NCBI GenBank assembly: GCA_913051775.1
Contig: CAJXCL010000006.1
Location: forward strand, 7,447-71,446
Reading direction: 5' to 3'
Length of the DNA stretch: 64,000 nt
Source: an uncultured Nitrospirota bacterium
GTDB lineage: Bacteria; Nitrospinota; Nitrospinia; CAJXCL01
Under the pieces are notes generated by a model, which had not been told where the DNA came from, made no database searches, and saw only the letters and a list, made by a program, of their open reading frames with translations. Position numbers and translations under genes: made by a program. Within the stretch, counting starts at the first letter, position 1. Each line of letters starts with the position of its first letter. Positions 50,761-64,000 of this stretch are shown in pieces.

Positions 50761-53268
50761 TTAGCCGCATTTTGAATAACCACACAGTCGGCATAGCAGG
50801 CAGCCATCGGCATGTTCAAGATTCCCTCCATTGCAATCCGGACAGATCATGATCGTGGCCAATTCAAGAAGGTGCGGGTCGTCAGGCTCTTCAAACTTTG
50901 TATCTGATTTGGGTTGATTTCCCTTCTTTTCCTCTTTTTTTCTTTTTAAATATTGATGTATAGCTTTTCCAATAGCATCCGAGCAGGACAAGATTTTCTC
51001 ACCGTTTTCCCATGATTGCTGGTGGCAGCTTATTCCGCGCAGTTGTTTGGTAATGATATCTGGTTCAATATTTGACCTGAGGGCGAGCGAAACCAGGCGC
51101 CCTATAGCTTCTAACTGGGAAGCCGCACATCCGCCGGCTTTTCCCATCTGAGTAAATATTTCAAAAGGAATTTCATTGTCACATTCATTAACAGTTAAAT
51201 ACATGTTGCCGCAGCCTGTTGATACTAACTGGGTACTCCCACGAGTTATTTTTGGTCTGGGTCTTGGAGTTATTTTTGTGGAGGGCTGCTGTTTTTTTGC
51301 GGGTTTAACAGTACCAGTTGTCAGTACCTGTTTGGATCTGCTGCCATCCCTGTAAATTGTGACCCCTTTGCAACCGGTAGAGTGGGCAAGCATATAGGCT
51401 TTGCGAATGTCATCCTCGGTTGCTGAATTAGGAAAATTCACTGTTTTGGAAACGGCATTATCCGTACTTTTTTGAAAAGCAGCCTGTATTTTTATATGCT
51501 GTTCAGGAGTAGCATTATGTGCTGTAACAAATAAGCTTGCGATATCTGCGGGTACTTCAGAAATATTTTCAAGATGTCCTTCATGAGCAATTGTCCTCAT
51601 CAAGTCAGCCGAATAGAACTCTCTTTCTTTAGCCATCTGTTCAAACAAAGGGTGAACTTCTATCAGCTCGTCATTATCCATCACATTTCTCACATATGAT
51701 ACGGCAAAGATTGGCTCAATACCGGAAGAACAGTTGGCAATAATGCTGATAGTACCTGTTGGCGCGATAGTAGTGGTTGTAGCGTTGCGGGGCTTTATCT
51801 CATCCTTATCCTGAGCAGAGTCGAAGGGCGGTTTATCATAAATACTGCCTTCAAAAGTTGGGAATAAACCCCTTTTTTCGGCTAATAAGACAGATGCCTT
51901 TTTTGATTCTTTATTTATAAAGGACATAACCACTTCTCCAATCGTTATAGCTTCATCAGAATCATAAGGAATGCCTAGTTTAATAAGCATATCGGCAAAC
52001 CCCATAACCCCTAATCCAATTTTCCGGTTTGCTTTAGTCATAAGTTCAATTTTTTTCAAAGGGAAATGATTTATCTCTATAACATTATCCAGAAAATGAA
52101 CCGCTTTATGTATAGTACAAGAAAGTTTTTCAAAATCTATTTCCCGCAGAATTAATGGTGCATCAATGGAGCCATTCGTATCCCCTGAGTTAAGCTTCGC
52201 ATTGCTGGAACTCCCCCTTTCTTTGACCATGGCTGAAAGATTAATAGAACCTAGGTTGCAAGATTCATAGGGAAGTAAAGGCTGTTCACCGCAGGGATTT
52301 GTGCTTTCTATGCTGCCTGAATTTGGGGTAGGGTTATCCCTGTTAATCCGGTCAATAAAGATGATTCCCGGATCGCCGTTTTTCCATGCCGATGAAACTA
52401 TATTGTTAAAAACCTTTTCTGCGGAAAGTTTCCCTGAAATTTCGTTGGAATGTGGATTATAAAGGTTGTAATCCTCTCTTTTAATAACCGCTTTCATAAA
52501 CACGTCAGTTAAAGCCACGGAAATATTGAAATTATTTATCTGATTATCGTCTTCTTTACATGTGATAAATTTTTCGATATCAGGGTGGTCAACTCTGAGA
52601 ACTCCCATGTTTGCTCCGCGTCTGGTTCCACCCTGCTTAATAGCTTCAGTTGCCGAGTCAAATACTTTCATGAACGAAATAGGACCGCTCGACACTCCGT
52701 TTGTTGTCGCCACAGGTGAGTTTGCCGGGCGGAGACGAGAAAAGCTAAAACCAGTTCCTCCTCCGCTTTTATGGATCAATGCAGTATCTTTAATGGTTTC
52801 AAAAATGCTTTCCATGGAATCTTCAATTGGCAGAACAAAACAGGCGGATAATTGCTGCAACTCACGTCCGGCGTTCATTAAAGTCGGAGAATTAGGCAAA
52901 AAATCCAGGCTGGCCATCATATTATAAAATTCTTCTTCAGTTACTGAAACATCAGCATCTGGATTAAATTTGAGATCTGCAGAAGCAATATTTTTTGCAA
53001 CTCTGAGAAAGAGATCTTTCGGTTTTTCAACGACTTTCCCGTCTTCATTTTTCTTTAAATACCTCTTTTCCAATACCTTCAGAGAATTTTCAGATAAAAC
53101 AGGTTCCGGAAATCTGCCTTCGTTTTTAGTATTACCAGCTACATGCTTTATTAAGGTTTTAAGAGTACCGGGTGGTTCAGTAGGTTTTTGAGAGTTAGAA
53201 AGGGTGCTATCCGATGTAGAACTTTTATGCGTTTCTTGTACTCCAGTTTTGCGTTCTTTTAACTTCAT
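50761..53268 (-). CDS. nrdJ: Class II (B12-dependent) ribonucleotide reductase with C-terminal TSCPD/Zn-ribbon domain
   Basis: [43 protein letters not shown]-terminal [13 protein letters not shown]. Confidence 0.94.
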
Positions 53269-53316
53269 AATATGCCCTTTCGTAGTAATATTTTTATATA
53301 AAATGAGATTAGATTG

Positions 53317-53363
53317 ACCCTCTATATTGTATGGAGAAGAAAATTTACCTCAATATATAGTAT
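53317..53363. promoter_or_regulatory. Tandem NrdR boxes upstream of nrdJ
   Basis: accctctatattgtat (53317) and cctcaatatatagtat (53348) resemble acaCwATATaTwGtgt and are 31 nt apart. Confidence 0.65.
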
Positions 53364-53501
53364 ATGTCAAGTTAAATTTCGTGCATTTGTAGAAAATTTT
53401 GATGAAATACAAACCTGCCAAAACCACCCCTTTAATCCTTACTAAAGGAGGGGACACAGTCCGGAACAATCGTTTTGAAAGATCTTCCGTTTCTATGAGA
53501 T

Positions 53502-54266
53502 TCATAAATTCTTATCGATTAATGTATCCAAAATTTTCTTGGCTTCTTCAGTAATGTTTTCGGAAATTTTATCGTTGTTTTTATCGTGTTTATTAGAACT
53601 TTCTTTATTACTTTTGCTGACACGGCCTTTTTTATCTTCGTTTTTCTCACTGTCTTCTAAACTTCCCGTTATGGCATCCAGACCGGTTTTTATCTTATCC
53701 TTCATATCGGGTAATTTAAGTTTATCCTGCACGTTTTCCATAAGTTTTTTTTTCATATCTTTCATAACCTTACTTTGCATATTTTCCATAATATTTTTAT
53801 CAGAAAAAGAGGTTTTCGATAGTTCACGTGAAATATTCAGGATGTAAGGAGCTAATTTTGACTTTGCAATGATTTCTTTTTTGGCATAAGGGACAAAGCC
53901 GATAGGAATCATAATCACCGCAATAATTAATATTCCCTTAACCAATCCCAGGAGGCTACCACCAATACGATCGGTAACAGTAAGAGTTTTAGTTTCATAT
54001 AGCAGCTTTCGGACTAATTGCCCAATCTGGCTTATAATTAGCGCGGAAAAGATAAATATAAATCCAAAACTTAATAAATCGGCTACCATTTTATTTGAAA
54101 CAAAATCGGAAATCTGAGTGGAAATAAGAGAATAATATCTATGGGAGAGAATAAAAGCGAAAATAATTGAAGCAAGTGAAAACAGCTCCTTAATCAGCCC
54201 CCTGATAAGGCTGTAAACTGTTGACGCTATCAGTAAAACTATAACGCTAATGTCAAACCAATGCAT
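53502..54266 (-). CDS. CvpA (colicin V production) family protein with charged C-terminal tail
   Basis: MHWFD..RGLIKELFSL, DRIGGSLLGLVKG, SKLAPY. Confidence 0.88.
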   Translation of the reverse strand: MHWFDISVIVLLIASTVYSLIRGLIKELFSLASIIFAFILSHRYYSLISTQISDFVSNKMVADLLSFGFIFIFSALIISQIGQLVRKLLYETKTLTVTDRIGGSLLGLVKGILIIAVIMIPIGFVPYAKKEIIAKSKLAPYILNISRELSKTSFSDKNIMENMQSKVMKDMKKKLMENVQDKLKLPDMKDKIKTGLDAITGSLEDSEKNEDKKGRVSKSNKESSNKHDKNNDKISENITEEAKKILDTLIDKNL

Positions 54267-54435
54267 AGTATGCTATTAATTTTATATTATAAAAAATAAT
54301 AATCAACCCCAATATAGAATTTTAAAAATTCTATATCGGGTTTTGCGTTTTAATCTAAATGATTTGGACACGCTCGACATTATGTTGACAATTGAATTGG
54401 ATTAAAATATTTTAGTGTTTTTGGAGGGTACTAAT

Positions 54436-54672
54436 ATGAATGAAACACATTTTGACATAGAATTAAATTGTAGGGGTTTATCCTGTCCATTGCCTATCGT
54501 TAAAACAAAAATGGCTATTTCAAAATTGAGGGAAGGACAGGTGCTTAAGATAATTTCTACAGACCCCGGGACCAGAGCTGACATGGCTGCATGGTCTTCC
54601 AGAACCGGCCATGAAATTATAATGTCTGAAAATAATAACGGGGAATACATTTTTTATCTTAAACATAAATAA
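54436..54672 (+). CDS. TusA family sulfur carrier
   Basis: LNCRGLSCPLPIVKTK, STDPG. Confidence 0.92.
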   Translation: MNETHFDIELNCRGLSCPLPIVKTKMAISKLREGQVLKIISTDPGTRADMAAWSSRTGHEIIMSENNNGEYIFYLKHK

Positions 54673-54673
54673 C

Positions 54674-54907
54674 TTAAACCTTTTTTTGGACTATTATATG
54701 CCAATCGGTACTGTTTATCTTTATTACTTCCAAAACCTTATGCCCTTCGTTTTCCATACTTCCGGGGACATTTTTCGTAGCAGGCTCATGGTCAATAATT
54801 ATTTTAAGAATTTTTCCCGCATCCATTTCTTCAAGCGTTAGTTTAGACTTTACAAAAGTATAAGGACAAACCTCTCCTTTTATGTTAATTGTTTTATCCG
54901 GTTCCAT
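54674..54907 (-). CDS. TusA/YeeD family sulfur carrier
   Basis: IKGEVCPYTFVKSK, DHEPA..NVP. Confidence 0.9.
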   Translation of the reverse strand: MEPDKTINIKGEVCPYTFVKSKLTLEEMDAGKILKIIIDHEPATKNVPGSMENEGHKVLEVIKINSTDWHIIVQKKV

Positions 54908-54922
54908 GTATTAATTTCTATC

Positions 54923-55174
54923 CTATACACAAACAACTTTATCGGTAGAAAAGATTATATTCAGCATTTCCTTATAATCTATTGCTTGATTCTCTGTGTT
55001 TATTTTACATAAATCCGCGTCTTCTTTAAGAACTTTTACTTTATCTATTTTCCTCAGTTTTTCTAGGCAAACGGCGTTTTGGATTAAAATTGCCTCATGA
55101 TTTTCTTTTTTTATATCGAAATATTTTAAAAATGGAGAATCAGGGTTACGGATAATAAAAAGAGATTTTTTCAT
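54923..55174 (-). CDS. DsrH/TusB-like protein
   Basis: ILIQNAV, VLKEDA, IDYKEMLNIIF..DKVV. Confidence 0.72.
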   Translation of the reverse strand: MKKSLFIIRNPDSPFLKYFDIKKENHEAILIQNAVCLEKLRKIDKVKVLKEDADLCKINTENQAIDYKEMLNIIFSTDKVVCV

Positions 55175-55182
55175 TTTATTTA

Positions 55183-55521
55183 TCAATGAATAACAACATT
55201 TGCCTTATCAAGAAGATCAATAAACTCAGGGGGCTTAATACTTTGATATTTAATATTATTAGAAATAGAGAAATTGCCCGCATCTTCTACATAAAACTTT
55301 GCATCCAATTCCGCCAGCATTTTAACATGTTTGAAAGCAGGTTTCATATTGGCCTTTGATTTATCCAGTTCCTGCAAAACATGACATGAATTTCCTAAGA
55401 ACACGAGATTTAAAATATTTTCATCATTTAAGGTTAAACCCACGGCAAGGCGAAGCTTTTCTAAAGCTTTGTTTGTTTCAAAGGTATAATCGGAAAAAAT
55501 AATAAAAATGCTTTTGGTCAA
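55183..55521 (-). CDS. DsrF/DsrE-like protein
   Basis: EKLRLAVGLT, LVFLG, FYVE, ANVVIH; between DsrE and DsrH. Confidence 0.62.
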   Translation of the reverse strand: MTKSIFIIFSDYTFETNKALEKLRLAVGLTLNDENILNLVFLGNSCHVLQELDKSKANMKPAFKHVKMLAELDAKFYVEDAGNFSISNNIKYQSIKPPEFIDLLDKANVVIH

Positions 55522-55594
55522 ATTCCCTCCTAAACGCGTAAAAATTTTGCTACGAAGTATTTTGAGATTCGTATTTTATTAAATTCCAATGAGA

Positions 55595-55909
55595 TTATAT
55601 AAACGCAATATACCTGTCTGTTTCATTAGCGATAAAGGCATTGTCATATTGGCTTCCGTATTTAAATCCTTGGTATTTATAAGCATGAAGCTCATCCGCG
55701 CTATGAGTACAAACCGTCACCTTAACTCTCTTATCTTTAGCAAGTTCTTGAAGGGATTCGTTTGTCCCGTTAAGCGCTCCCTCATGCATCAGAAAAAGTT
55801 CAACTTCTATACCCTCTTTTACTGCTGCCGACGAAAGACCAATAGCTGAAAGGGTATCCTGGCTTTCAGGTCCCTTAAAAAGCAGTATTCCAAGTTTTTT
55901 CTTTTTCAT
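55595..55909 (-). CDS. DsrE family sulfur relay protein
   Basis: LGILLFKGP, VELFLMHEGA, VTVCTHSA (conserved Cys), GSQYD. Confidence 0.8.
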   Translation of the reverse strand: MKKKKLGILLFKGPESQDTLSAIGLSSAAVKEGIEVELFLMHEGALNGTNESLQELAKDKRVKVTVCTHSADELHAYKYQGFKYGSQYDNAFIANETDRYIAFI

Positions 55910-55912
55910 AAA

Positions 55913-56242
55913 TCAGGGACCTTTATCAAGTTCAGGCAAGATAAACTGTTTTTCAATTTGGGTAATCTCGCTAACTTTTTCCACAATAGTTTTCATTTTT
56001 ATTTTTAACGGCTCAAAATAAAGGCTGATTTTTCTTTCATTTGCTTTAAAGCGAGCTGAATTGACACCCTCCAATTTTTTTAACTCACTGGCTATCATAT
56101 CCTTACCCATAATACAGCAGATATTATTTTTATCGAAATTGATTGTTAAGCGTTTTTCATCCGCTTGTGCATGGGATGCAACTACAAAAAACATCAAGAA
56201 CAAAAGACTAATCTTAAAAATCCGCTGCTTTAGCCACATCAT
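55913..56242 (-). CDS. Secreted HMA-like (heavy-metal-associated) domain protein
   Basis: Signal peptide, NICCIMG then ELKKLEGVNSA..ISLYFEP ferredoxin-like pattern; start uncertain. Confidence 0.55.
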   Translation of the reverse strand: MMWLKQRIFKISLLFLMFFVVASHAQADEKRLTINFDKNNICCIMGKDMIASELKKLEGVNSARFKANERKISLYFEPLKIKMKTIVEKVSEITQIEKQFILPELDKGP

Positions 56243-56636
56243 CTAAATCCATCTCCAATTGTTTTGCGACTTTCATCATTGCTCTTGGCTGAAATAAAGC
56301 CGCGAAAGCTGTAGGTTTTAAATAAGAAATGTAAATCGTATTTTCATTTTTCGGCTGGTAAACCACTAATCGGACAGGCATAAAGACGCCTGCTCTCAAA
56401 TCCGACGAAACAACTTCATTGCAATTTATGAGATTGCACATTTCGATAATCTTATAATGCTGAAACCCTATGCTTAATTTATCTACCAGTGCGGCTTTTT
56501 CTTTTATGTTATCAACATTTACAATTTTTACAATGCGATAATTTTTTAATTGGGCTTCTTTGATTAAATTTTCTATTATTTCACCAAAATCAGCTTTTTG
56601 AAAAACGTGAGTTACAATATCTTTGTTGATGTCCAT
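56214..56636 (-). CDS. DUF302 domain protein
   Basis: YKIIEMCN, AGVFMPVRLVVY, ISYLKPT. Confidence 0.8.
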   Translation of the reverse strand: MDINKDIVTHVFQKADFGEIIENLIKEAQLKNYRIVKIVNVDNIKEKAALVDKLSIGFQHYKIIEMCNLINCNEVVSSDLRAGVFMPVRLVVYQPKNENTIYISYLKPTAFAALFQPRAMMKVAKQLEMDLDDVAKAADF

Positions 56637-56668
56637 TAAACCATTATATAAACTGATTAAGGGGTATG

Positions 56669-57814
56669 CTATTTCATCATAACTAATTTTTCTGTTTTTT
56701 CATTCCAGACTGCCAACCAATACCAGAGATACATAATTCCAAAAACAAATAACAGAGCAATCAACCAGCTATTGAAGATATCAGGGAGAAATACCCTTTT
56801 AAAATAAGAATATTCAAATACCAGTTGCAATATTACATGAGTGCCCGCTGCTGAAAGGGAAAATGCAAAAACAGCCAACCATGACTTCAGTTGACCTTCT
56901 CCGGAGCGCCATAGAGACCCTGAAGCGCAACCTCCGGCGAGAACCATTCCGATAGCAAATATAAAGCCTCCTATAACAGCAGGCAATCCCGCTGAAGGGG
57001 CTATTTGAACAGTAAAATCTTTAATTCCGGAAAATTTTAAGATAGAAAAACCAGAAATACAAATTAGAAAAGCCGTAACAACCGCTTTTATCATCTCTCC
57101 CTCCCCGGTCAAAAAAGGTTCTCTAAAAGCCCGCACAAAGCAGAATCTCGATCTCTGGTTTGTGATTCCTAAAATCACGGCCAGGCAGAAAATAACACCC
57201 AGAACATTTAAATCCAGATAGTCGTAATAATAAGGAATTAACAACAGACCGGTAACTACTACAGAAATGCCTGAGTAAATTTGAAGCAGGGGAGGGGGGT
57301 AAAAAGCTTTTCCACTTTTGACCGGCTTTTTTTCAGATCTTCTCATGTCCCATATCAAATAATTAAGACCTGCAATTGTGCCGATAAGCAGACCTAACAT
57401 CATGAATAAGCCGCTTCCTGATAGGGCGCTGATGGAACTAAAAAATCCGCCTATGGTGCACCCCCTGGCAAAATTTGCCCCAATTCCCATTAATATACCC
57501 CCCCAAATACCTTTCATTGCTTCTTTAAGAGGCGGTATTTGTATGCTGAACTCTTTTGCCAGCAATGCAGAGCCAAAGGCGCCAAACAAAAAAGCCATAT
57601 CCATTACTGAGCTGGTATGTTCCAGAGGAGATATTTGTGCAACATCTGGAAAATTTGGAATGAACTCAAGCAGATGCAGTCCCCAATTTCGTAATCCCGA
57701 GAAAATAGACCAGGGACTGTCAAAGGCAAACATCATGGTATTGACAAATCCAATAAGCAAAGCGCCAATAAATGGAGACCACTGGCTTTTAAAAAGGCTT
57801 TTCCAGATTTCCAA
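56669..57814 (-). CDS. YeeE/YedE (TsuA-like) sulfur-compound transporter
   Basis: ARGCTIG, QRSRFCF, AGGCASG three-Cys motifs; multi-TM. Confidence 0.92.
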   Translation of the reverse strand: MEIWKSLFKSQWSPFIGALLIGFVNTMMFAFDSPWSIFSGLRNWGLHLLEFIPNFPDVAQISPLEHTSSVMDMAFLFGAFGSALLAKEFSIQIPPLKEAMKGIWGGILMGIGANFARGCTIGGFFSSISALSGSGLFMMLGLLIGTIAGLNYLIWDMRRSEKKPVKSGKAFYPPPLLQIYSGISVVVTGLLLIPYYYDYLDLNVLGVIFCLAVILGITNQRSRFCFVRAFREPFLTGEGEMIKAVVTAFLICISGFSILKFSGIKDFTVQIAPSAGLPAVIGGFIFAIGMVLAGGCASGSLWRSGEGQLKSWLAVFAFSLSAAGTHVILQLVFEYSYFKRVFLPDIFNSWLIALLFVFGIMYLWYWLAVWNEKTEKLVMMK

Positions 57815-57829
57815 TTATGATACTTTCTG

Positions 57830-58174
57830 TCAGGAGAATTTAATTTCTTTAGAAGCTTTAAACGTTTCGTTTTGATTGCTTTGAAAAACAACTTTCAGAG
57901 TTGCTTCCTTATCCGCTTTTAAAGGGAATTCGATTCTTGGATTCTGGCTTACGGCAGAGGACATTAAAAAAGTACAAACTTTTTCTTTACCGTAAAATAC
58001 TTCCATTTCTTTTAGATATACTGCCGGTTCTTTTCTGTAAAAATCATCCGTATCTCCTATAGTTGCCAGGCCTGTAATAGAAGGGTATTTTGGCTGTACA
58101 GCTACATTAATAATATCCCCTTTTTTAATTTTCCTCGGCAGTTTAATTTTAGGAGGTTTTTTTTTTCTTGCCAC
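57830..58174 (-). CDS. SoxZ-like protein
   Basis: KKGDIINV..YPSITG, SSAVSQNPRIEF, LKVVF; no signal peptide; GTG start right after the SoxY-like gene. Confidence 0.78.
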   Translation of the reverse strand: MARKKKPPKIKLPRKIKKGDIINVAVQPKYPSITGLATIGDTDDFYRKEPAVYLKEMEVFYGKEKVCTFLMSSAVSQNPRIEFPLKADKEATLKVVFQSNQNETFKASKEIKFS

Positions 58175-58175
58175 T

Positions 58176-58640
58176 TTAGCACCCTCCGCCGACAATTCTA
58201 ATCATCGCATCTCCAACCCACCGTCCATGTTTACTGCAAGCTATCACAGCGTAAACTGTGGTAGTACCTGCTGCCATTCGAGTCTGGAACTTCAAATGTG
58301 GTCTTCCATTTTGTGGAGAAAATAAAAATCTCCCTTTTGTCGTAATAGGATCTGATAATACAATAACATCAACACTTTCAACAAAATGATCCTTTTCCAT
58401 AGGATGATCGAGAGTAAGTTCTATGGGTACAAATCTACCGTCTTCCGCAACCATCGGAATTTTAAGTTTGGGTGTATGAGTTTTTTCCAGCCCTCGTAAA
58501 TTATCTATATCCTTTGCTTTTTGAATGTCATCAGGCAAAGCTATAGCAGCAGCAAGTTTGGGGTCTACTTTTCCAAGAAAGGACATCGTAAACAGACCAA
58601 TGCTTACATGTTTAACAAAATTTCTTCTATCTAATTTCAT
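58176..58640 (-). CDS. Tat-exported SoxY-like protein with desulfoferrodoxin/SOR-like metal motif
   Basis: DRRNF Tat motif; P.VAEDGRFVP (SoxY-like); EKTHTP, HPMEKDH, CSKHG; C-terminal GGGC. Confidence 0.75.
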   Translation of the reverse strand: MKLDRRNFVKHVSIGLFTMSFLGKVDPKLAAAIALPDDIQKAKDIDNLRGLEKTHTPKLKIPMVAEDGRFVPIELTLDHPMEKDHFVESVDVIVLSDPITTKGRFLFSPQNGRPHLKFQTRMAAGTTTVYAVIACSKHGRWVGDAMIRIVGGGC

Positions 58641-58675
58641 AGGATATTAATAATAATTTAACCGATCTCTATTCT

Positions 58676-59026
58676 TTATTTATTCCATTTTTTAATAAGT
58701 TCCGATAATATTTTAGTTTCTTCTTCCGTAATGTTCTTGGTCGCCGGCATTCCTTCTTCATATTTTTCAGGATATCGTGTTTTTTCTTTGGAAACGCCCT
58801 TTAAAAGCATCTCGTTAATGGTCCTGACATCGTATTTTCTAATAAAATCATTGTTTCGAAGCGACGGGGCGTCTCCTCCGCCTTTAGCGTTTCTACCATG
58901 ACACTCGGCGCAAGCATTCAGGTAAATCATCTTAATGTTTTTATTCGGAAATATTTCAGCTGCTGAAATAGATGTTGGTAATAAAAAAACACCGCAAAGA
59001 ATAAAGATGACTACAAATCGATTCAT
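58676..59026 (-). CDS. Periplasmic monoheme cytochrome c
   Basis: Signal peptide, CAECH, APSL, GMPA axial Met. Confidence 0.88.
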   Translation of the reverse strand: MNRFVVIFILCGVFLLPTSISAAEIFPNKNIKMIYLNACAECHGRNAKGGGDAPSLRNNDFIRKYDVRTINEMLLKGVSKEKTRYPEKYEEGMPATKNITEEETKILSELIKKWNK

Positions 59027-59050
59027 ATTACAGCACTCTAATAATTATAT

Positions 59051-59275
59051 TAGTGCCTGACCGAGAAATGTCCCCCTTTGCGGTCATTTCGAGCCCTTAT
59101 AGTCATTCTAAGAGAGCCAAGCTACTGAAAAATTCTCGTTCAGGACAGACCTGGCAAGGCTCTTCAAAAGGCTCACGATGAACTCTGTGAGAAACCTAGT
59201 GAATTAAAATATTAAGGTTAAAGATTTCTCTCTTCCGTCGAAATCACAAATACTGAGCTTTTCGTTCCTGCACTA
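59051..59275. mobile_element. Degenerate MITE-like/REP composite element
   Basis: Imperfect TIR tagtgcctgaccgagaa / ttttcgttcctgcacta; internal gtcatttcga...tcgaaatcac and gagaaacct...agatttctc arms. Confidence 0.5.
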
Positions 59276-60130
59276 TTTGCCGGACAATGGTGTCGGTAAC
59301 GCGTGATGGGGTTCTCCATCTACACTCATGCTATGGATTACTTCATTAGTATTAGCATCGATCTGGTGCAGCATTCTACCAAAAGTTTCTGCAACCCAGT
59401 ATGATTTGTTGTCCGGCATTAAACCTATATTGCATAATCCTTCCGCGTCTTTAATCTCGATGCTTCCAACCTCTTTTTTACTCTTGGCGTCATAGATTCC
59501 CACTCTGCTTTCGCCCCTCAAAGTCACCAGTATACGTTTTTTATCGGGTGAAAAAGCTACGCCGTGAGGATTTTTCCCTACTTTAAACTCTCCAACCTTT
59601 TTTCTATTTTTCCAGTCGACAATTGAGACTTTATTCCCGCTGCCGCCAGCCACGTAAACATTTCCATCTGGACCAAAGACAAACTGGTGAGAATCACTTG
59701 GCGTCTTGATAATATCGTATTTCCCGGTTATCCGGTCCAAAACAATAACTTTTTTATTCTGACTGGCAGAGATTACGTGTTTTCCGTCAGGCGCTACAAG
59801 GATTCCACAATTTTTAGTTGTTTCAGGAATTGGAAACCATTTACTAACGCCCTTTTTGGCAATATTATATTCCACAATATCACCCGGAGGCATAGCGTTC
59901 ATATATAAATATTTTTTATCCGGAGACATAGCTACCCCGTGAGATCCCAGTATAGGCAATGGCGAATAAGATACAACGGTTTTTGTTTCCGGGTTGATAA
60001 GAGCCATTTGTTTGGTTTTATCAAGAATTACGCGAATAAGGTAATCAGGTTCAGCGTGTACCGTAATTACAGAAGCGATCATAGAAAAAATAAAAATAAA
60101 TACAGACAAAACTGCCGTTTTTTTTAACAT
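59273..60130 (-). CDS. Secreted YncE/YVTN-type beta-propeller protein
   Basis: Signal peptide; six repeats such as HGVAMSPD, CGILVAPDG, HQFVFGPDG, HGVAFSPD, CNIGLMPD. Confidence 0.85.
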   Translation of the reverse strand: MLKKTAVLSVFIFIFSMIASVITVHAEPDYLIRVILDKTKQMALINPETKTVVSYSPLPILGSHGVAMSPDKKYLYMNAMPPGDIVEYNIAKKGVSKWFPIPETTKNCGILVAPDGKHVISASQNKKVIVLDRITGKYDIIKTPSDSHQFVFGPDGNVYVAGGSGNKVSIVDWKNRKKVGEFKVGKNPHGVAFSPDKKRILVTLRGESRVGIYDAKSKKEVGSIEIKDAEGLCNIGLMPDNKSYWVAETFGRMLHQIDANTNEVIHSMSVDGEPHHALPTPLSGK

Positions 60131-60230
60131 TTTTTATCTCTCCAAAAAATAAATTATTGAAAAAAACTTTATAGCTAAAATTTTTTTAATTAAAAATCAC
60201 CCCTTTCTCTGTTAATTTGTTATATAGTAA

Positions 60231-60345
60231 GTAAGCCTGCCTTAAAAAACGAGGTATCAAAGGAAATGAGAGGGATTGCATCCCCCTTGCCCTCGCTCTG
60301 CATTCATCCCCGCCATAAATAGCTGGATATTCTGCGATTATTTCA
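60231..60345. mobile_element. Probable IS200/IS605-family end remnant
   Basis: gcattcatccccgccataaatagctggatattctgcg subterminal hairpin resembling IS605-type ends; no transposase. Confidence 0.4.
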
Positions 60346-60437
60346 TAAAGCGGCCAATGGGTCGCAACCAAATAGGGCTTCCGTCCTGGCAAAAAAACTT
60401 TCTCAAAAAAGAAGTTTTTACAGTTTATAGCATAAAG

Positions 60438-60830
60438 TTAAGATTTTTTCGAGATCGATCTTAAAAAGTTTATTATGTCCCAAATCTCATTATTCTTAAG
60501 GATCAAGCCAAATGGAGGCATCTCAAACCATATACCTCCGTTTTTGATTTTTTGAAATAAAAAACCATCTGAAATGTCGGCAATCGTTCCGTCCGTAAAA
60601 TCCCATGGAACCACTTCAAAACTTTCAGCAGAAGGTCCATTCCCATCCGCTTTTTCTCCATGACAAACGGAACATTTTTCAAAAAAAAGCTTATTTCCAT
60701 TTGAAATAGATTTTGAGTCAGCGGCTCGAGGATTTTTAATTGCGTCAACATCGATTTCTTTTTCTTTGGCGTAACTAAAACAGGTTAAAATAAAAAAGAC
60801 ACCAAGAGTTAAGGCGATTAATCTCATCAT
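60438..60830 (-). CDS. Periplasmic monoheme cytochrome c
   Basis: Signal peptide, KNP..GNKLF..CSVCHG..DGNGP, SDG.LF.KI.NG, MPPF. Confidence 0.9.
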   Translation of the reverse strand: MMRLIALTLGVFFILTCFSYAKEKEIDVDAIKNPRAADSKSISNGNKLFFEKCSVCHGEKADGNGPSAESFEVVPWDFTDGTIADISDGFLFQKIKNGGIWFEMPPFGLILKNNEIWDIINFLRSISKKS

Positions 60831-61051
60831 AATTCCTTTCATTATAACTTTAAAGGGATTTATAATCAAAAGGATTTTAGTTGGTTTCCATCTCTAATAG
60901 GGTATAAAGATAATCTCGTACTATGTTCTTTTTTAATGGATTTTTGAGGTTTTGTGGTTTTCGACAGACAGGCAAGTTGTGGCATTTATAATGATTGACT
61001 TTTAAAAACAACAAATATCGTTATGGACAAAAGAGCTGATTCCTGCAAGAT

Positions 61052-61849
61052 CTATGCAAGTGAACTCCCCGTACGCATGGTGTTCTGCTCTGCGGTGAGA
61101 TAGATGATCTGATTCATACGAAAGACCTTGTCATATAGGTCTTCCTTTATGTACTGGGAATGAAACACCCGGGCGTCGAAGATGGCTAATCTATTGGGCT
61201 TCATCTCCACGAGTTGCAGCAATTCCCAAAACTCATTTCCATCGTTGATATAGTTATTCCCCTTGGCGGCGAACAAGGGGTTGAAGATCATACTGCGTTG
61301 GAAGTTTTCATAGCCTTCCTCTGTTTGAAAGAATTCGTTACTCAGTTCGAGTCGCTCGGCCAATTGCCAAACCTCTTGATCCGGCGTGATAGGGAGCCTT
61401 GGCAGCCGTTCTAAATCTGTCGGACGATGGCGATAGAGTGCGGTTCCTCCGGTAGAGGACTGCTCAGGATTCAGATAGATCAATGCGGTAATATCCGGGT
61501 CTATGTGTGGTGCACGCTGCCCGATATTGAGTCGGTAGTCCATTGTGGTTAGGGCTTGAAAAACGGCTAACTGGGGTTGAAAAAACGAATATAGCTGCGA
61601 TCCCCAAAGTTGACTTATTGCGTTGATAACGGGTTCGGTACTTATATTGATTTGCGCTCGACGTCCGGGGAAGTTTCCGGTGAGATCATAATGGTCGGTA
61701 TAGGGCAGTTTGGCTATAACCTGTAGAATCTTTTCCAGGTCCTTATAGAAATTATCAACCAGGACTGCTTTATGCTTCCCCTTGCCAACGTATGCTACTT
61801 GACTCTTTAAATTAGGGTTAATCTCTAGGAGGTCATCATTTATTTCCAC
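61052..61849 (-). CDS. DUF6445-like 2OG-Fe(II) oxygenase-fold protein
   Basis: VDNFY, FPGRR, PHID, LIYLN, GGTALYRH, NRLAIF..FHS. Confidence 0.75.
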   Translation of the reverse strand: MEINDDLLEINPNLKSQVAYVGKGKHKAVLVDNFYKDLEKILQVIAKLPYTDHYDLTGNFPGRRAQINISTEPVINAISQLWGSQLYSFFQPQLAVFQALTTMDYRLNIGQRAPHIDPDITALIYLNPEQSSTGGTALYRHRPTDLERLPRLPITPDQEVWQLAERLELSNEFFQTEEGYENFQRSMIFNPLFAAKGNNYINDGNEFWELLQLVEMKPNRLAIFDARVFHSQYIKEDLYDKVFRMNQIIYLTAEQNTMRTGSSLA

Positions 61850-61881
61850 AGCTTTTCTCCTTAAAGTTCGAGATCATATAT

Positions 61882-61897
61882 ATCAATTTGCATGCCA
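61882..61897 (-). promoter_or_regulatory. Putative sigma54 (-24/-12) promoter
   Basis: TGGCAT-GCAAA-TTGAT on the minus strand ~33 nt upstream of the start; palindrome GTTAC-N6-GTAAC at 61984-61999. Confidence 0.5.
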
Positions 61898-62388
61898 TCT
61901 TTATACATTCTTGATTTATTTCTTACAGTATTGATATATTTGGAGAAATCTAAAATAATGAGTTTTGGAGGGAATGCAGCGATGTTACATATGAGTAACG
62001 GGAAGGATATAATGACAAATCATAACGCTCTTTACTCCCAAGTGCAATCATGTATATTGTGATGTATCTAATTAAGCATACAATATATTGGATAAAAAGA
62101 GCAAAATGTAATTGGACGGTTAAATTGGCCTTAAGTTAACTAATAATACTTAATCTAAACAACAGTTACTTTACATATTTCCAAGTCAAGCTTTTTTTGA
62201 GATGACTTCAACTTTGAGCGGGTGGCAAGCCTGACTTCGCCCCAACAAGAATAAATTTGCCACAAAGAGACTAAGAAAGAAAGAAAAATCTTCAAGATTT
62301 TGTGGCTTAGCGGAAAAAAATCAATATGTTGTAGAAAAACAGTGCAAAAAAAAATGTTACCGGTTGGCAATGCAAAAGAAGTATCTAA

Positions 62389-63624
62389 TTACAACATCTT
62401 TTGTGCCACGATTTCTAATCCTTGAAATTTTAAAGAGAGATTGCAACCGGGGTACTTGCTGTAAGCATCCGTTTCATCTTTGTATTCGTTGGAGTCTAAA
62501 TGTGTGACTTTAAATCCGGATTGTTTGATGTCAGAGATAAGGGTTTGACAGAAATCATCTTCAATTTCAATGAGGGATTCTAAGTAACCGGAAGTCAACT
62601 TTTTTTTGAATTCAGCATCATCTGCCTGACGCAGAATTCGGAGTTCCACGTCAGTATCCAAAATCTCAAGTATTCCGTCAGGTTCAAGACTTTCCCAAGC
62701 CCAGCGAAGGAATTTTTTCCTTTCCATTCGTTTTAAATGATGCATGAATTTATTTGACATAATTAAGCCGAATTTTAAATTTTGCGGGGCTTTGTCCGGG
62801 AAATCGGCATCAAGGATTTCAATGTTCCGCTTGCCCAACATAGTTTTGTAATGAGTGAGGCATTGGAAGATGAAGGGCATGCAATCGGTTAAAACCAGCC
62901 TGGGATAATTTCCAGGCCAGTTAAAAATCACTCTAAGGCCGGCCAGGCCGGTTGCTACATCCATCAGAGACTGGTTCAGGTTGCGGGGCTTAGGCTCAAC
63001 TGGATTTTGCCAGGGGAAATTCTTTGTCTCAAACACGTAATAGCTATAACATTCACTCAACAATCTTATGATTTCCGGGTCTTTATAAAACAGAGGATCT
63101 TTTCTAAGGGTCAGGGCCAGTTGCTGAAATAGGAAGTCCATCTTGCGGTTCAGCGACACCAGTTGTAGATTTGCTTTCACTACTCTACCTGATGGTTCCG
63201 TAACTCTCCGTCTATCGTGAACAGAAGCGGCGCCTGATAAAGGAACTCTTGGATTCGTTGGAACCGCCGGATTCCCAGATGTTTCAGGTTCGAAGAAATC
63301 ACCATACTCTTTTTGCAGGTTTTTATTGATGAGATCAAAATTTAATAATACTGATAGTCTTTCGTGCTGAAGATAAACCAGGTCAGCCAGGTCAATCATC
63401 ATTTCCGGGTAAATAGCGCACAGCAGCGTATTGAAACACTCCTGGTATTCCATTCCCTTTGGAGTATCGGCAAATCCCAGTAATTTATTCAAATGCTCAA
63501 ATAGAGCTTTTGCCCGTATATCCAGCACAGGTAAAAAGGAATTTTTTAATCCTAAAAAGGATCTTCCTCTACCGGTCAGTAAAGGAAGTTTATCCGAAGT
63601 TTTTACAAAAATAGGGCAGTTCAA
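62389..63624 (-). CDS. Class I SAM-dependent methyltransferase domain protein
   Basis: LMDVATGLAG, FMHHL, LEPDG.L.ILD; likely TTG start at 63624 after AAAGGT SD. Confidence 0.72.
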   Translation of the reverse strand: MNCPIFVKTSDKLPLLTGRGRSFLGLKNSFLPVLDIRAKALFEHLNKLLGFADTPKGMEYQECFNTLLCAIYPEMMIDLADLVYLQHERLSVLLNFDLINKNLQKEYGDFFEPETSGNPAVPTNPRVPLSGAASVHDRRRVTEPSGRVVKANLQLVSLNRKMDFLFQQLALTLRKDPLFYKDPEIIRLLSECYSYYVFETKNFPWQNPVEPKPRNLNQSLMDVATGLAGLRVIFNWPGNYPRLVLTDCMPFIFQCLTHYKTMLGKRNIEILDADFPDKAPQNLKFGLIMSNKFMHHLKRMERKKFLRWAWESLEPDGILEILDTDVELRILRQADDAEFKKKLTSGYLESLIEIEDDFCQTLISDIKQSGFKVTHLDSNEYKDETDAYSKYPGCNLSLKFQGLEIVAQKML

Positions 63625-63628
63625 ATCA

Positions 63629-64000
63629 TTACCTTTGTTTGGCATATATCTGGGGCAGTCGATTAGTTCCGTACTTTGAGATATAGAGGAAAACATGTTC
63701 GCGCGCGTTGATCCGCACAGCCCAGGGTTCGAAATCATTGCGATAGATATCTTCGGAAAGCTCCATAGCCTCCATACAGGTGATGCCTATCGGCTTGTTA
63801 AGTGTGTAATAGTAGTCGAGCGGTATATCATATTCGTCCTGCTTGTGAATCGTGATTCCGAACCTCTCCGGGTTTTGAACAATCGGCGAGTGGCGATACG
63901 CAACAAAATTAGACATTTCAACCGAATGAATGTTTTCCTTATTTTCAAGAAGGAACTCTCGTGTCTCCCCGACCTCTTCCCTAGTTTCTCCGGGGAAGCC
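63629..64000 (-). CDS. C-terminal part of a B12-binding-type radical SAM protein (truncated by window edge)
   Basis: Frame is open to the window end: GFPGETREEVGETREFL..SNFVAYRHSPI..NPERFGI. Confidence 0.75.
   Translation of the reverse strand, partial: GFPGETREEVGETREFLLENKENIHSVEMSNFVAYRHSPIVQNPERFGITIHKQDEYDIPLDYYYTLNKPIGITCMEAMELSEDIYRNDFEPWAVRINAREHVFLYISKYGTNRLPQIYAKQR

Follow-up and report, generated by a model that had tools for sequence, protein, structure and literature searches.

Can a sulfur carrier of the Sox type work without SoxXA, SoxB and SoxCD? This question is raised by a gene cluster at positions 54415-60869 of a stretch of 64,000 nucleotides (hereafter the window) on contig CAJXCL010000006.1, which belongs to the genome of an uncultured marine bacterium of the Nitrospinota (G000 in our genome set). 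Among bacterial systems that oxidise thiosulfate, the most widespread one centres on SoxYZ, whose carrier is not known to hold a cofactor. The cluster encodes a SoxY relative, here named SorY, which combines the C-terminal cysteine arm of a sulfur carrier with the iron ligands of a superoxide reductase (SOR). SoxZ, a beta-propeller protein, two c-type cytochromes and a membrane channel of the YeeE/YedE family are encoded along with it. We read these genes as a Sox-related periplasmic sulfur-carrier module composed of an iron-site carrier, a propeller partner and a channel, which works without SoxXA, SoxB and SoxCD, and we give this reading about even chances. In a farther-reaching version, no sulfur carrier before SorY would have possessed a redox-active non-heme iron centre, and the protein would be a living link between SORs and SoxY; together with the cytochromes and a propeller whose hub holds a new metal site ligated by His and Cys, it would form a SoxXA/SoxB-independent pathway of sulfur oxidation coupled to import through YeeE; this version we hold only tentatively and consider doubtful.

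Protein families were assigned by Pfam and NCBIfam scans, and each score (in bits) was compared with the curated cut-off of the respective model. SorY exceeds the cut-offs of both the SoxY and the Desulfoferrodox families of Pfam, and the two matches fall on one and the same stretch of the protein. It ends in GGGC, with the carrier-type Cys154 as its last residue, and possesses the complete SOR-type Fe(His)4Cys ligand set, i.e., H55, H79, H85, C135, and H138. Ligand C135 and terminal C154 are its only two cysteines. The N-terminal twin-arginine motif DRRNFVK suggests export by twin-arginine translocation (TAT). In a phmmer search against the PDB, the best match among solved structures is the SOR of Ignicoccus (4bk8, E 3.3e-5), whose five iron ligands all fall on those of SorY, and the next distinct family is represented by SoxY of Thermus (4uwq_B, E 1.1e-4), aligned through the terminal GGC. 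The fold shows the same double affinity. For the AlphaFold model of SorY (predicted local distance difference test, pLDDT, 84.1), the top Foldseek matches interleave Ignicoccus SOR and Paracoccus SoxY, with target-normalised template-modelling scores of 0.75-0.79 and 0.72-0.74, respectively. The initial annotation had suspected a SoxY-like/SOR hybrid from the window alone; matches to both families, five iron ligands and a conserved carrier cysteine confirm this view.

The residues in question are strongly conserved. H79, H85, C135, H138, and C154 are invariant in all 15 close relatives of SorY, H55 is present in 14 of them, and the terminal cysteine is also kept in a wider alignment of 18 rows. 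A profile search among 1.84 billion cluster representatives revealed 592 matches at E ≤ 0.001; all five ligands occur in 36 of the best 150 of these, and many of the 36 end in VGGC. A tree built from the core region places ordinary SoxY (60 rows) apart from the ligand-bearing set (44 rows) with a support of 99 in the Shimodaira-Hasegawa-like approximate likelihood ratio test (SH-aLRT); this is a quick tree, for which 104 of 151 rows were kept and 47 rows with more than 12 gaps were left out. In database entries the relatives go by the name 'SoxY' or 'desulfoferrodoxin', and their sources are metagenome-assembled genomes labelled Nitrospinota, Nitrospirales, Candidatus Methylomirabilis and, in one case, 'bacterium' only.

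Partnership with SoxZ is a further recurrent feature. A SoxZ gene adjoins the SorY gene in all related loci, and the longer relatives of 256-284 amino acids (aa) are SorY-SoxZ fusions, in which GGC is kept in the linker; SoxY, Desulfoferrodoxin, and SoxZ domains were found in all four long relatives scanned. The SoxYZ pairing supposed for the window is thus repeated at the related loci. A complex prediction for SorY (residues 33-154), SoxZ, and the propeller (residues 27-285), computed with alignments, scored 0.00 against a mark of 0.32 and is neutral on binding. Loci encoding SoxY in Gemmatimonadales/Gemmatimonadota, which accounted for 77 of the 80 loci found, were rejected as relatives: they had been picked up via a shared peptide pattern, and the 21 Gemmatimonadales loci examined all end in NGCG and carry no C-x2-H ligands. 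At the one Gemmatimonadota locus scanned (L013, 7977-11007), a SoxY paralogue is accompanied by SoxZ, and the genes that follow encode a protein with metallo-beta-lactamase fold and a rhodanese of two domains.

How could the two sites of SorY cooperate? In the model, the second-last strand (125-135) ends with C135, the hairpin contains H138, and strand 139-151, the last before the arm, extends over the whole length of the sandwich. Iron site and arm should, by this topology, lie at opposite poles of one subunit. Because of these opposite positions the arm would not reach its own iron. A carrier with two poles, one for redox chemistry or docking and one for sulfur, or else an action between subunits, would fit better than self-loading in cis.

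SorY belongs to a core of six genes, listed here in their conserved order:

60438-60869, - strand: cytochrome c 1, first gene of the core; class I, monoheme, heme motif CSVCH, signal peptide; Pfam Cytochrom_C 38.2 bits (cut-off 21.3)
59273-60130, - strand: beta-propeller protein of the YVTN/YncE type, 285 aa, with signal peptide; YVTN repeat model TIGR02276 40 bits (cut-off 27.85)
58676-59026, - strand: cytochrome c 2; class I, monoheme, heme motif CAECH, signal peptide; Cytochrom_C 32.7 bits (cut-off 21.3)
58176-58640, - strand: SorY, the SoxY/SOR hybrid of 154 aa; Pfam SoxY 59.5 bits (cut-off 28.4) and Desulfoferrodox 41.8 bits (cut-off 22.2)
57830-58195, - strand: SoxZ-like protein, no signal peptide; Pfam SoxZ (PF08770) 49.4 bits (cut-off 25)
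56669-57814, - strand: membrane channel of the YeeE/YedE family, 381 aa; Pfam Sulf_transp (PF04143) 176.6 bits (cut-off 27)

The same order is found at three other loci, L001, L002, and L003, where L002 is a contig of 2.1 kb that is cut at both ends and thus holds the core only partially. Cytochrome c 1 is kept at its position in L001 and L003, cytochrome c 2 in L001, L002, and L003, and YeeE directly follows SoxZ in all four window-type loci, i.e., these three and the window. With its six-gene core repeated in the same order elsewhere, the cluster is real and its arrangement is not due to chance. Window-type SorY (E < 1e-80) was detected in four GTDB species genomes. Two of them, the window's own genome G000 and G002, share one genus, and the other two (G120 and G121) belong to a second phylum-level group. 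The four genomes represent two lineages and not four independent events.

The propeller shows the same distribution. Its family is narrow, since identity drops from at least 60% in 23 relatives to 28% in the match ranked after them, and strong matches occur in only four of 153 searched genomes, all of which carry window-type SorY; the match in G120 (E 5.7e-25) is cut by the end of a contig. The predicted structure has six blades (pLDDT 88.4, predicted template-modelling score 0.84). In an alignment of the window protein with 17 of the 23 close relatives, H64, C108, H148, H189, C233, H275, and H276 are invariant in all 18 members, C108 and C233 being the sole cysteines of the protein. The invariant residues are spaced by 40-44 positions, with one site per blade, and are placed at or just before the innermost strand. 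Propeller enzymes such as nitrous-oxide reductase and thiocyanate dehydrogenase place their hub metal sites at inner strands. Because invariant His and Cys residues are found at the inner strand of each blade, the propeller carries a candidate hub metal site, which may take the form of a metal-binding ring at the mouth of the tunnel. Co-inherited with SorY and lined by His and Cys, the propeller may turn out to be a periplasmic metalloenzyme of a new kind. The cytochrome at 60438-60869 yielded no match to a SoxA or SoxX model at E ≤ 0.01.

Are the canonical partners encoded elsewhere in the genome? The assembly of G000 comprises 2.05 Mb in 107 contigs and is 96% complete. Its best scores for SoxB (133.8 against a cut-off of 550) and SoxA (43.6 against 110) are far too low for either protein. 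Two candidates for a Sox partner were rejected, namely a SoxB-like open reading frame (ORF) of 584 aa on contig C12, which is nucleotidase-like, and a SoxA-like stretch on contig C37, which lies in a Cys-rich repeat ORF; the context of both is unrelated to sulfur. The latter ORF (C37, 663-1373) encodes a secreted protein of 236 aa, which consists mostly of NACNPC-type repeats and gives a spurious partial match to SoxA. The genome contains no second SoxY, no DsrC/TusE (PF04358 is without a match), no DsrAB, and no sHdr cluster among its proteins with CCG domains. Of two CCG proteins considered as sHdr components, one is SdhE in an sdh/frd operon and the other a lone GlcF-like protein. The sole siroheme protein is a reductase of the NirA/Sir type with a C-terminal TusA domain (797 aa; contig C40, 12727-15120, - strand), which adjoins glnB and amt. 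The same fusion, 792-797 aa long across genomes, is encoded directly upstream of the SorY core in a sister genome (L001, 3613-5991). Sulfate assimilation is represented by a PAPS/APS (3'-phosphoadenylylsulfate/adenylylsulfate) reductase and two ATP sulfurylases; one Oxidored_molyb protein is also present. Hence, the lack of the usual partners that was reported for the cluster holds for a 96%-complete genome as well, and no canonical sox set exists elsewhere in it that could make use of this SoxYZ.

A sister variant of the cluster gives an indication of the chemistry of the carrier. It was found in four genomes of the second group (G123, G142, G147, and G135; loci L099-L102) and has the order propeller (437 aa), SorY, SoxB-like protein (520 aa), SoxZ, cytochrome c, HupE/UreJ-type permease, and DUF255 thioredoxin-like protein. 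SorY of this variant is more distant, keeps all five ligands and ends in VGGC. YeeE and DUF302 adjoin the cluster in L100, and DUF302 is also found in L102. In all four sister genomes the SoxB-like gene is located between SorY and SoxZ and scores 418-441 bits against the SoxB cut-off of 550. That of L100 (5526-7088) reaches 423 bits with TIGR04486 over model positions 102-554, below the cut-off and far above its score with any nucleotidase model. SoxB above the cut-off is encoded in four other genomes of the second group, and no SoxB-like match at E ≤ 1e-60 was obtained in G120 and G121. The presence of a SoxB-like gene inside the sister clusters supports a Sox-type sulfur chemistry for the carrier.

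Downstream of the core, the window contains further genes, partly with similarity to sulfur-relay proteins:

56214-56636, - strand: DUF302 protein without signal peptide, motif C67-x4-C72; Pfam DUF302 38.5 bits (cut-off 23)
55913-56242, - strand: HMA-like secreted protein; HMA 17.6 bits, below the cut-off of 24.8
55595-55909, - strand: DsrE/TusD-like protein with Cys67; Pfam DsrE 28.9 bits (cut-off 22.7)
55183-55521, - strand: DsrF/TusC-like protein; Pfam DsrE family 21.9 bits, below the cut-off of 22.7
54923-55186, - strand: DsrH/TusB-like protein, a weak assignment made mainly by position and size; TIGR03011 15 bits (E 0.02, cut-off 49.2)
54674-54907, - strand: TusA-family sulfurtransferase, motif CPYT; Pfam TusA 67.8 bits (cut-off 28.6)
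54415-54672, + strand: convergent TusA, motif CPLP; Pfam TusA 79.1 bits (cut-off 28.6), NCBIfam TusA 52.3 bits

In total, the cluster comprises twelve co-oriented ORFs on the - strand and one convergent TusA gene on the + strand. The initial annotation had counted twelve genes, eleven of them co-oriented; the number is 13 because the DsrF-like and the DsrH-like protein are encoded by two separate ORFs. The limits it set, 54436 and 60830, correspond to ATG start codons inside the outermost gene on either side. Most of the family names it proposed are supported by scores above the curated cut-offs, and those of the HMA-like, DsrF-like, and DsrH-like proteins proved weaker than stated. Of the three subunits expected for DsrEFH/TusBCD, only the first is recognised above its cut-off, the second and third remaining below. 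For the DsrH-like protein, no match to the DsrH family of sulfur-relay proteins was found in Pfam at E ≤ 10, and the sole match, to DUF211 (E 0.04), is below its cut-off. Intergenic gaps within the cluster are short, and several neighbouring genes overlap.

With respect to conservation, the gene set was presumed to form a single unit. This is true for the six-gene core and not for the DUF302, HMA-like, DsrEFH-like, and TusA genes. At L003, not at L001, YeeE is again followed by DUF302 and the Cys-Cys HMA-like gene, which thereby recur in one of the three other loci. Only in the window is the core accompanied by DsrE/F/H-like genes and a pair of TusA genes, and a search with the DsrE-like protein gave a match in one of the four genomes of the genus, G000 itself.

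The proteins that could move sulfur across the membrane and beyond keep their characteristic cysteines. In the YeeE-family channel, Cys119, Cys225, and Cys296 occupy the alignment positions of Cys293, Cys22, and Cys91 of TsuA (6leo), respectively. Its halves are swapped relative to this protein, residues 212-325 matching TsuA 9-120 and residues 52-145 matching TsuA 226-319. It is colinear with YedE/FdhT, its best NCBIfam model (125 bits, cut-off 350), and stays below the cut-offs of the TsuA equivalog models NF052577 (103.1 against 400) and NF041049 (98.2 against 645). Cys91 and Cys293 of TsuA are indispensable according to the accessible part of the Hyphomicrobium study (PMC11582611). Both TusA proteins of the window have the CP-x-P/T cysteine motif, and DsrE has a single Cys; the closest models of the TusA at 54674-54907 are YedF and YeeD. 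DUF302 and YeeE genes also occur within sox clusters of Sulfitobacter, as stated in the available portion of PMC11034169. DUF302 proteins encoded after YeeE share a C-x4-C motif, which reads CNLINC in the window (56214-56636), CNLFTC in L003 (9963-10385), and CNLFSC in L100 (1533-1949). The HMA-like protein carries vicinal Cys42-Cys43 instead of CxxC, and the same CC motif is present in its L003 homologue. It matches the CopZ, UxxU, and MerTP models weakly, below the cut-offs, and an Atlas search returned scores below 0.9, which we take as a lead only. It is possibly a periplasmic chaperone for a metal or for sulfur. A metal-handling accessory in both variants (HMA-like here, HupE/UreJ in the sister) is weakly suggestive of a metal-dependent periplasmic partner.

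How might the system work? We propose that Cys154 of SorY-SoxZ would form a covalent bond with a reduced sulfur compound. As catalytic partner we envisage the propeller, which is probably a metalloprotein, and the two cytochromes would carry electrons and link the reaction to the respiratory chain; propeller and cytochromes may in this manner replace SoxAX and SoxB, as the initial annotation had envisaged. The iron site of SorY, opposite the arm, would serve as a built-in redox or docking site. The sulfur species would then pass inward via YeeE and, in the window strain, would be received as persulfide by the two TusA proteins and the DsrEFH-like set. Because no cytoplasmic sulfur-oxidising pathway is encoded in the genome, any energy gain would be periplasmic, and biosynthesis or trafficking would be the most likely use of imported sulfur. 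In the absence of a SoxB-like gene, the window type more likely acts on a compound that leaves no sulfonate on the carrier, for which sulfide, polysulfide, or another sulfane donor would be candidates.

The SOR half of SorY allows for a different interpretation, namely that the protein is a periplasmic reductase of superoxide or another reactive species, which obtains its electrons from the two adjoining cytochromes c and has YeeE and the relay genes as mere neighbours. The five iron ligands (those of centre II), the twin-arginine signal and the Desulfoferrodox score above cut-off are what one would expect of such an enzyme. Moreover, TAT-SOR is a recognised though uncharacterised class in the accessible part of the SORGOdb paper (PMC3116461), and a highly transcribed TAT-SOR of a plume Sulfurimonas is read as a periplasmic SOR in the portion available of PMC10066037. 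An SOR, however, needs neither the terminal cysteine that is invariant in 15 of 15 relatives nor a SoxZ that is adjacent or, in four of four cases, fused, and the sulfur-gene neighbours, including the SoxB-like gene inside the sister clusters, are likewise foreign to the class. A Glu-Lys pair directly preceding the first His ligand matters in SORs. SorY reads E-K-T-H at this point, and across the family the residue before the His is variable, not Lys. Classical TAT-SORs exist separately in the same phylum: weaker matches (E 1e-6 to 1e-11) were obtained in seven other genomes of the phylum (L083-L089), and the six examined (L083-L086, L088, and L089) encode classical TAT-SORs without the arm cysteine, which stand alone, with no SoxZ, cytochrome or YeeE within about 1.5 kb on each side. 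We therefore regard the SOR interpretation as unlikely.

Two more interpretations start from the accessory similarities, and we judge both to be very improbable. According to the one, the YedE-type channel, the TusA/YedF-like and HMA-like proteins and the propeller serve in the uptake or detoxification of either selenium or some soft metal. This would agree with YedE/FdhT as the best NCBIfam match of the channel, with YedF as the closest model of the TusA at 54674-54907, with the UxxU, CopZ, and MerTP similarities of the HMA-like protein and with the HupE/UreJ permease of the sister cluster. The scores concerned are far below their cut-offs, though (125 against 350, 51.4 against 79, and 26.6 against 95), SelD is found above its cut-off in none of the four genomes of the genus, and the SoxY arm, SoxZ and the SoxB-like gene would be left unexplained. 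According to the other, the genes are a distant cousin of the triad of propeller, SoxYZ-like protein and cytochrome c550 to which NCBI gives names that link it to pyrroloquinoline quinone (PQQ)/quinoprotein dehydrogenases, and would be a redox module accessory to a periplasmic dehydrogenase and not to inorganic sulfur. The same three kinds of protein are indeed encoded side by side, and they give sub-threshold matches to the models of this set, TIGR03866 (72.5), TIGR04557 (42.8 and 36.6), and PedF TIGR04494 (26.3 and 24.5). Against this, the respective cut-offs of 287, 140, and 122 are all missed by a wide margin, and the PQQ alcohol-dehydrogenase family (TIGR03075) is absent from the cluster and from all four genomes of the genus, which excludes identity with the PQQ-dehydrogenase-associated system, a possibility raised at the outset. 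In addition, SoxY and SoxZ are separate genes in the window, the carrier has its Cys arm, and the SOR ligands, the linkage to YeeE, and the SoxB-like gene of the sister variant all indicate sulfur.

Several observations weigh against the preferred reading of a Sox-related carrier module. The family is known from its sequences only, and each catalytic step as well as the substrate is a matter of conjecture. Both the distance from iron to arm in SorY and the hub site of the propeller were read from sequence and secondary structure. SorY scores above the Pfam cut-offs (PF13501 and PF01880) and below those of the SoxY equivalog TIGR04488 (55 against 125) and the SOR domain TIGR00332 (23.8 against 61.9), and its GGGC arm differs from the GGCGG swinging arm named in the title of TIGR04488. 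A structure search with the propeller returned only generic YVTN and WD40 folds, headed by an archaeal S-layer YVTN domain (1l0q), and no metalloenzyme. With no SoxB-like hydrolase in the window-type cluster, a thiosulfate cycle cannot be closed as it is in Sox. The genes of the cytoplasmic relay do not share the conservation of the core, and the distribution is patchy, window-type SorY being present in two of the four genomes of the genus. Finally, the cluster is not needed as a source of sulfur, because G000 has a full set for sulfate assimilation.

To what extent is such a system new? With canonical Sox it shares the SoxY-fold periplasmic carrier, whose C-terminal arm is rich in Gly and bears a Cys, and the neighbouring SoxZ, which in contrast to SoxY has no TAT signal. 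Operon-borne c-type cytochromes and, in the sister variant, a SoxB-like hydrolase are further common features. It differs in that SoxA, SoxX, SoxB, and SoxCD are missing from cluster and genome, in the Fe(His)4Cys site, which ordinary SoxY lacks, in the sequence of the arm and in the six-bladed His/Cys propeller as an obligate neighbour of the SorY core. A relay from SoxYZ through a YeeE-type protein to TusA/DsrE, which the initial annotation had presented as a candidate for an undescribed system, is already in print: the accessible text on Hyphomicrobium denitrificans describes the route from SoxYZ via SoxT1A (YeeE-like) and Rhd442/DsrE3C/TusA to sHdr (PMC11582611). Common to both are a SoxYZ-type carrier, a YeeE-family channel, co-encoded TusA/DsrE acceptors and the idea that the carrier's sulfur is brought in for use in the cytoplasm. 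In contrast to the Hyphomicrobium route, there is no SoxXAB that loads the carrier and no sHdr-LbpA that oxidises the sulfur, the acceptor genes are strain-specific, and the channel is colinear with YedE/FdhT, with its halves swapped relative to TsuA. The thiosulfate-uptake proteins YeeE/TsuA and YeeD/TsuB (6leo, 8j4c) resemble the window in that a Sulf_transp channel, in which all three channel cysteines have their equivalents, is found near TusA-family proteins, and differ, apart from domain order and scores, in that TsuA does not need the periplasmic module to which the window channel is coupled.

Within the library covered, full-text searches found no description of an iron-site SoxY carrier or of the propeller partner. 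In the accessible part of a comparative study on Nitrospinota, Sox is mentioned only as SoxABXYZ in class UBA7883, and the cluster is not mentioned there (PMC10839748). The SorY system may accordingly be viewed as a Sox-like carrier system whose metallo-carrier would be without precedent and whose partner enzyme would be new, the mechanism being as proposed above. SoxY homologues with a complete SOR iron site, always paired with SoxZ, point to a shared origin of the SoxY and SOR families, and an iron-site SoxY suggests that some carriers may join redox chemistry themselves. The core system is small, with six genes whose products are all soluble but one. Nitrospinota, Nitrospirales, and Methylomirabilis are better known for nitrogen cycling. 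A role of the system in sulfur use by such organisms would bear on the link between the marine nitrogen and sulfur cycles and, if the farther-reaching version is true, relatives of the marine nitrite oxidisers in the Nitrospinota would gain a so far unrecognised sulfur metabolism.

The cluster is flanked by housekeeping genes, namely purH, purD, the gene of a class II ribonucleotide reductase, cvpA, and mfd. Upstream of it, a DUF6445 protein (61052-61849) is followed by a protein of 449 aa (62389-63738) with a weak match to methyltransferases. G+C content amounts to 0.32-0.39 across positions 53500-60500 and to 0.41-0.44 in the flanks; the lowest values fall on cvpA, the TusA genes and the DsrEFH-like set. 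An Rfam scan of positions 53000-62500 revealed nothing beyond one match at chance level, and a scan for promoters and terminators gave counts near those of shuffled sequence. One element is located between cvpA and the + strand tusA:

54308-54340, no strand: palindrome of 33 nucleotides with a stem of 15 pairs

The palindrome could act as a terminator or as an operator, and a promoter-like site lies just downstream of it (54385-54413).

Is the cluster transcribed? The 6.5-kb stretch occurs in at least 16 public sequencing runs, ten of which are DNA runs (a possible source of the assembly) and six metatranscriptomes from marine, seawater, and hydrothermal-vent samples. Contigs from the RNA libraries of four runs, belonging to four studies, cover the cluster, with some parts uncovered in single runs. 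This is no more than a hint of transcription, with carry-over of DNA as a possible source of such contigs. One RNA-library contig of 3,725 nucleotides matches positions 57073-60797 with zero mismatches and extends from within YeeE to near the start of cytochrome c 1. The DUF6445 gene is also covered by RNA-library contigs.

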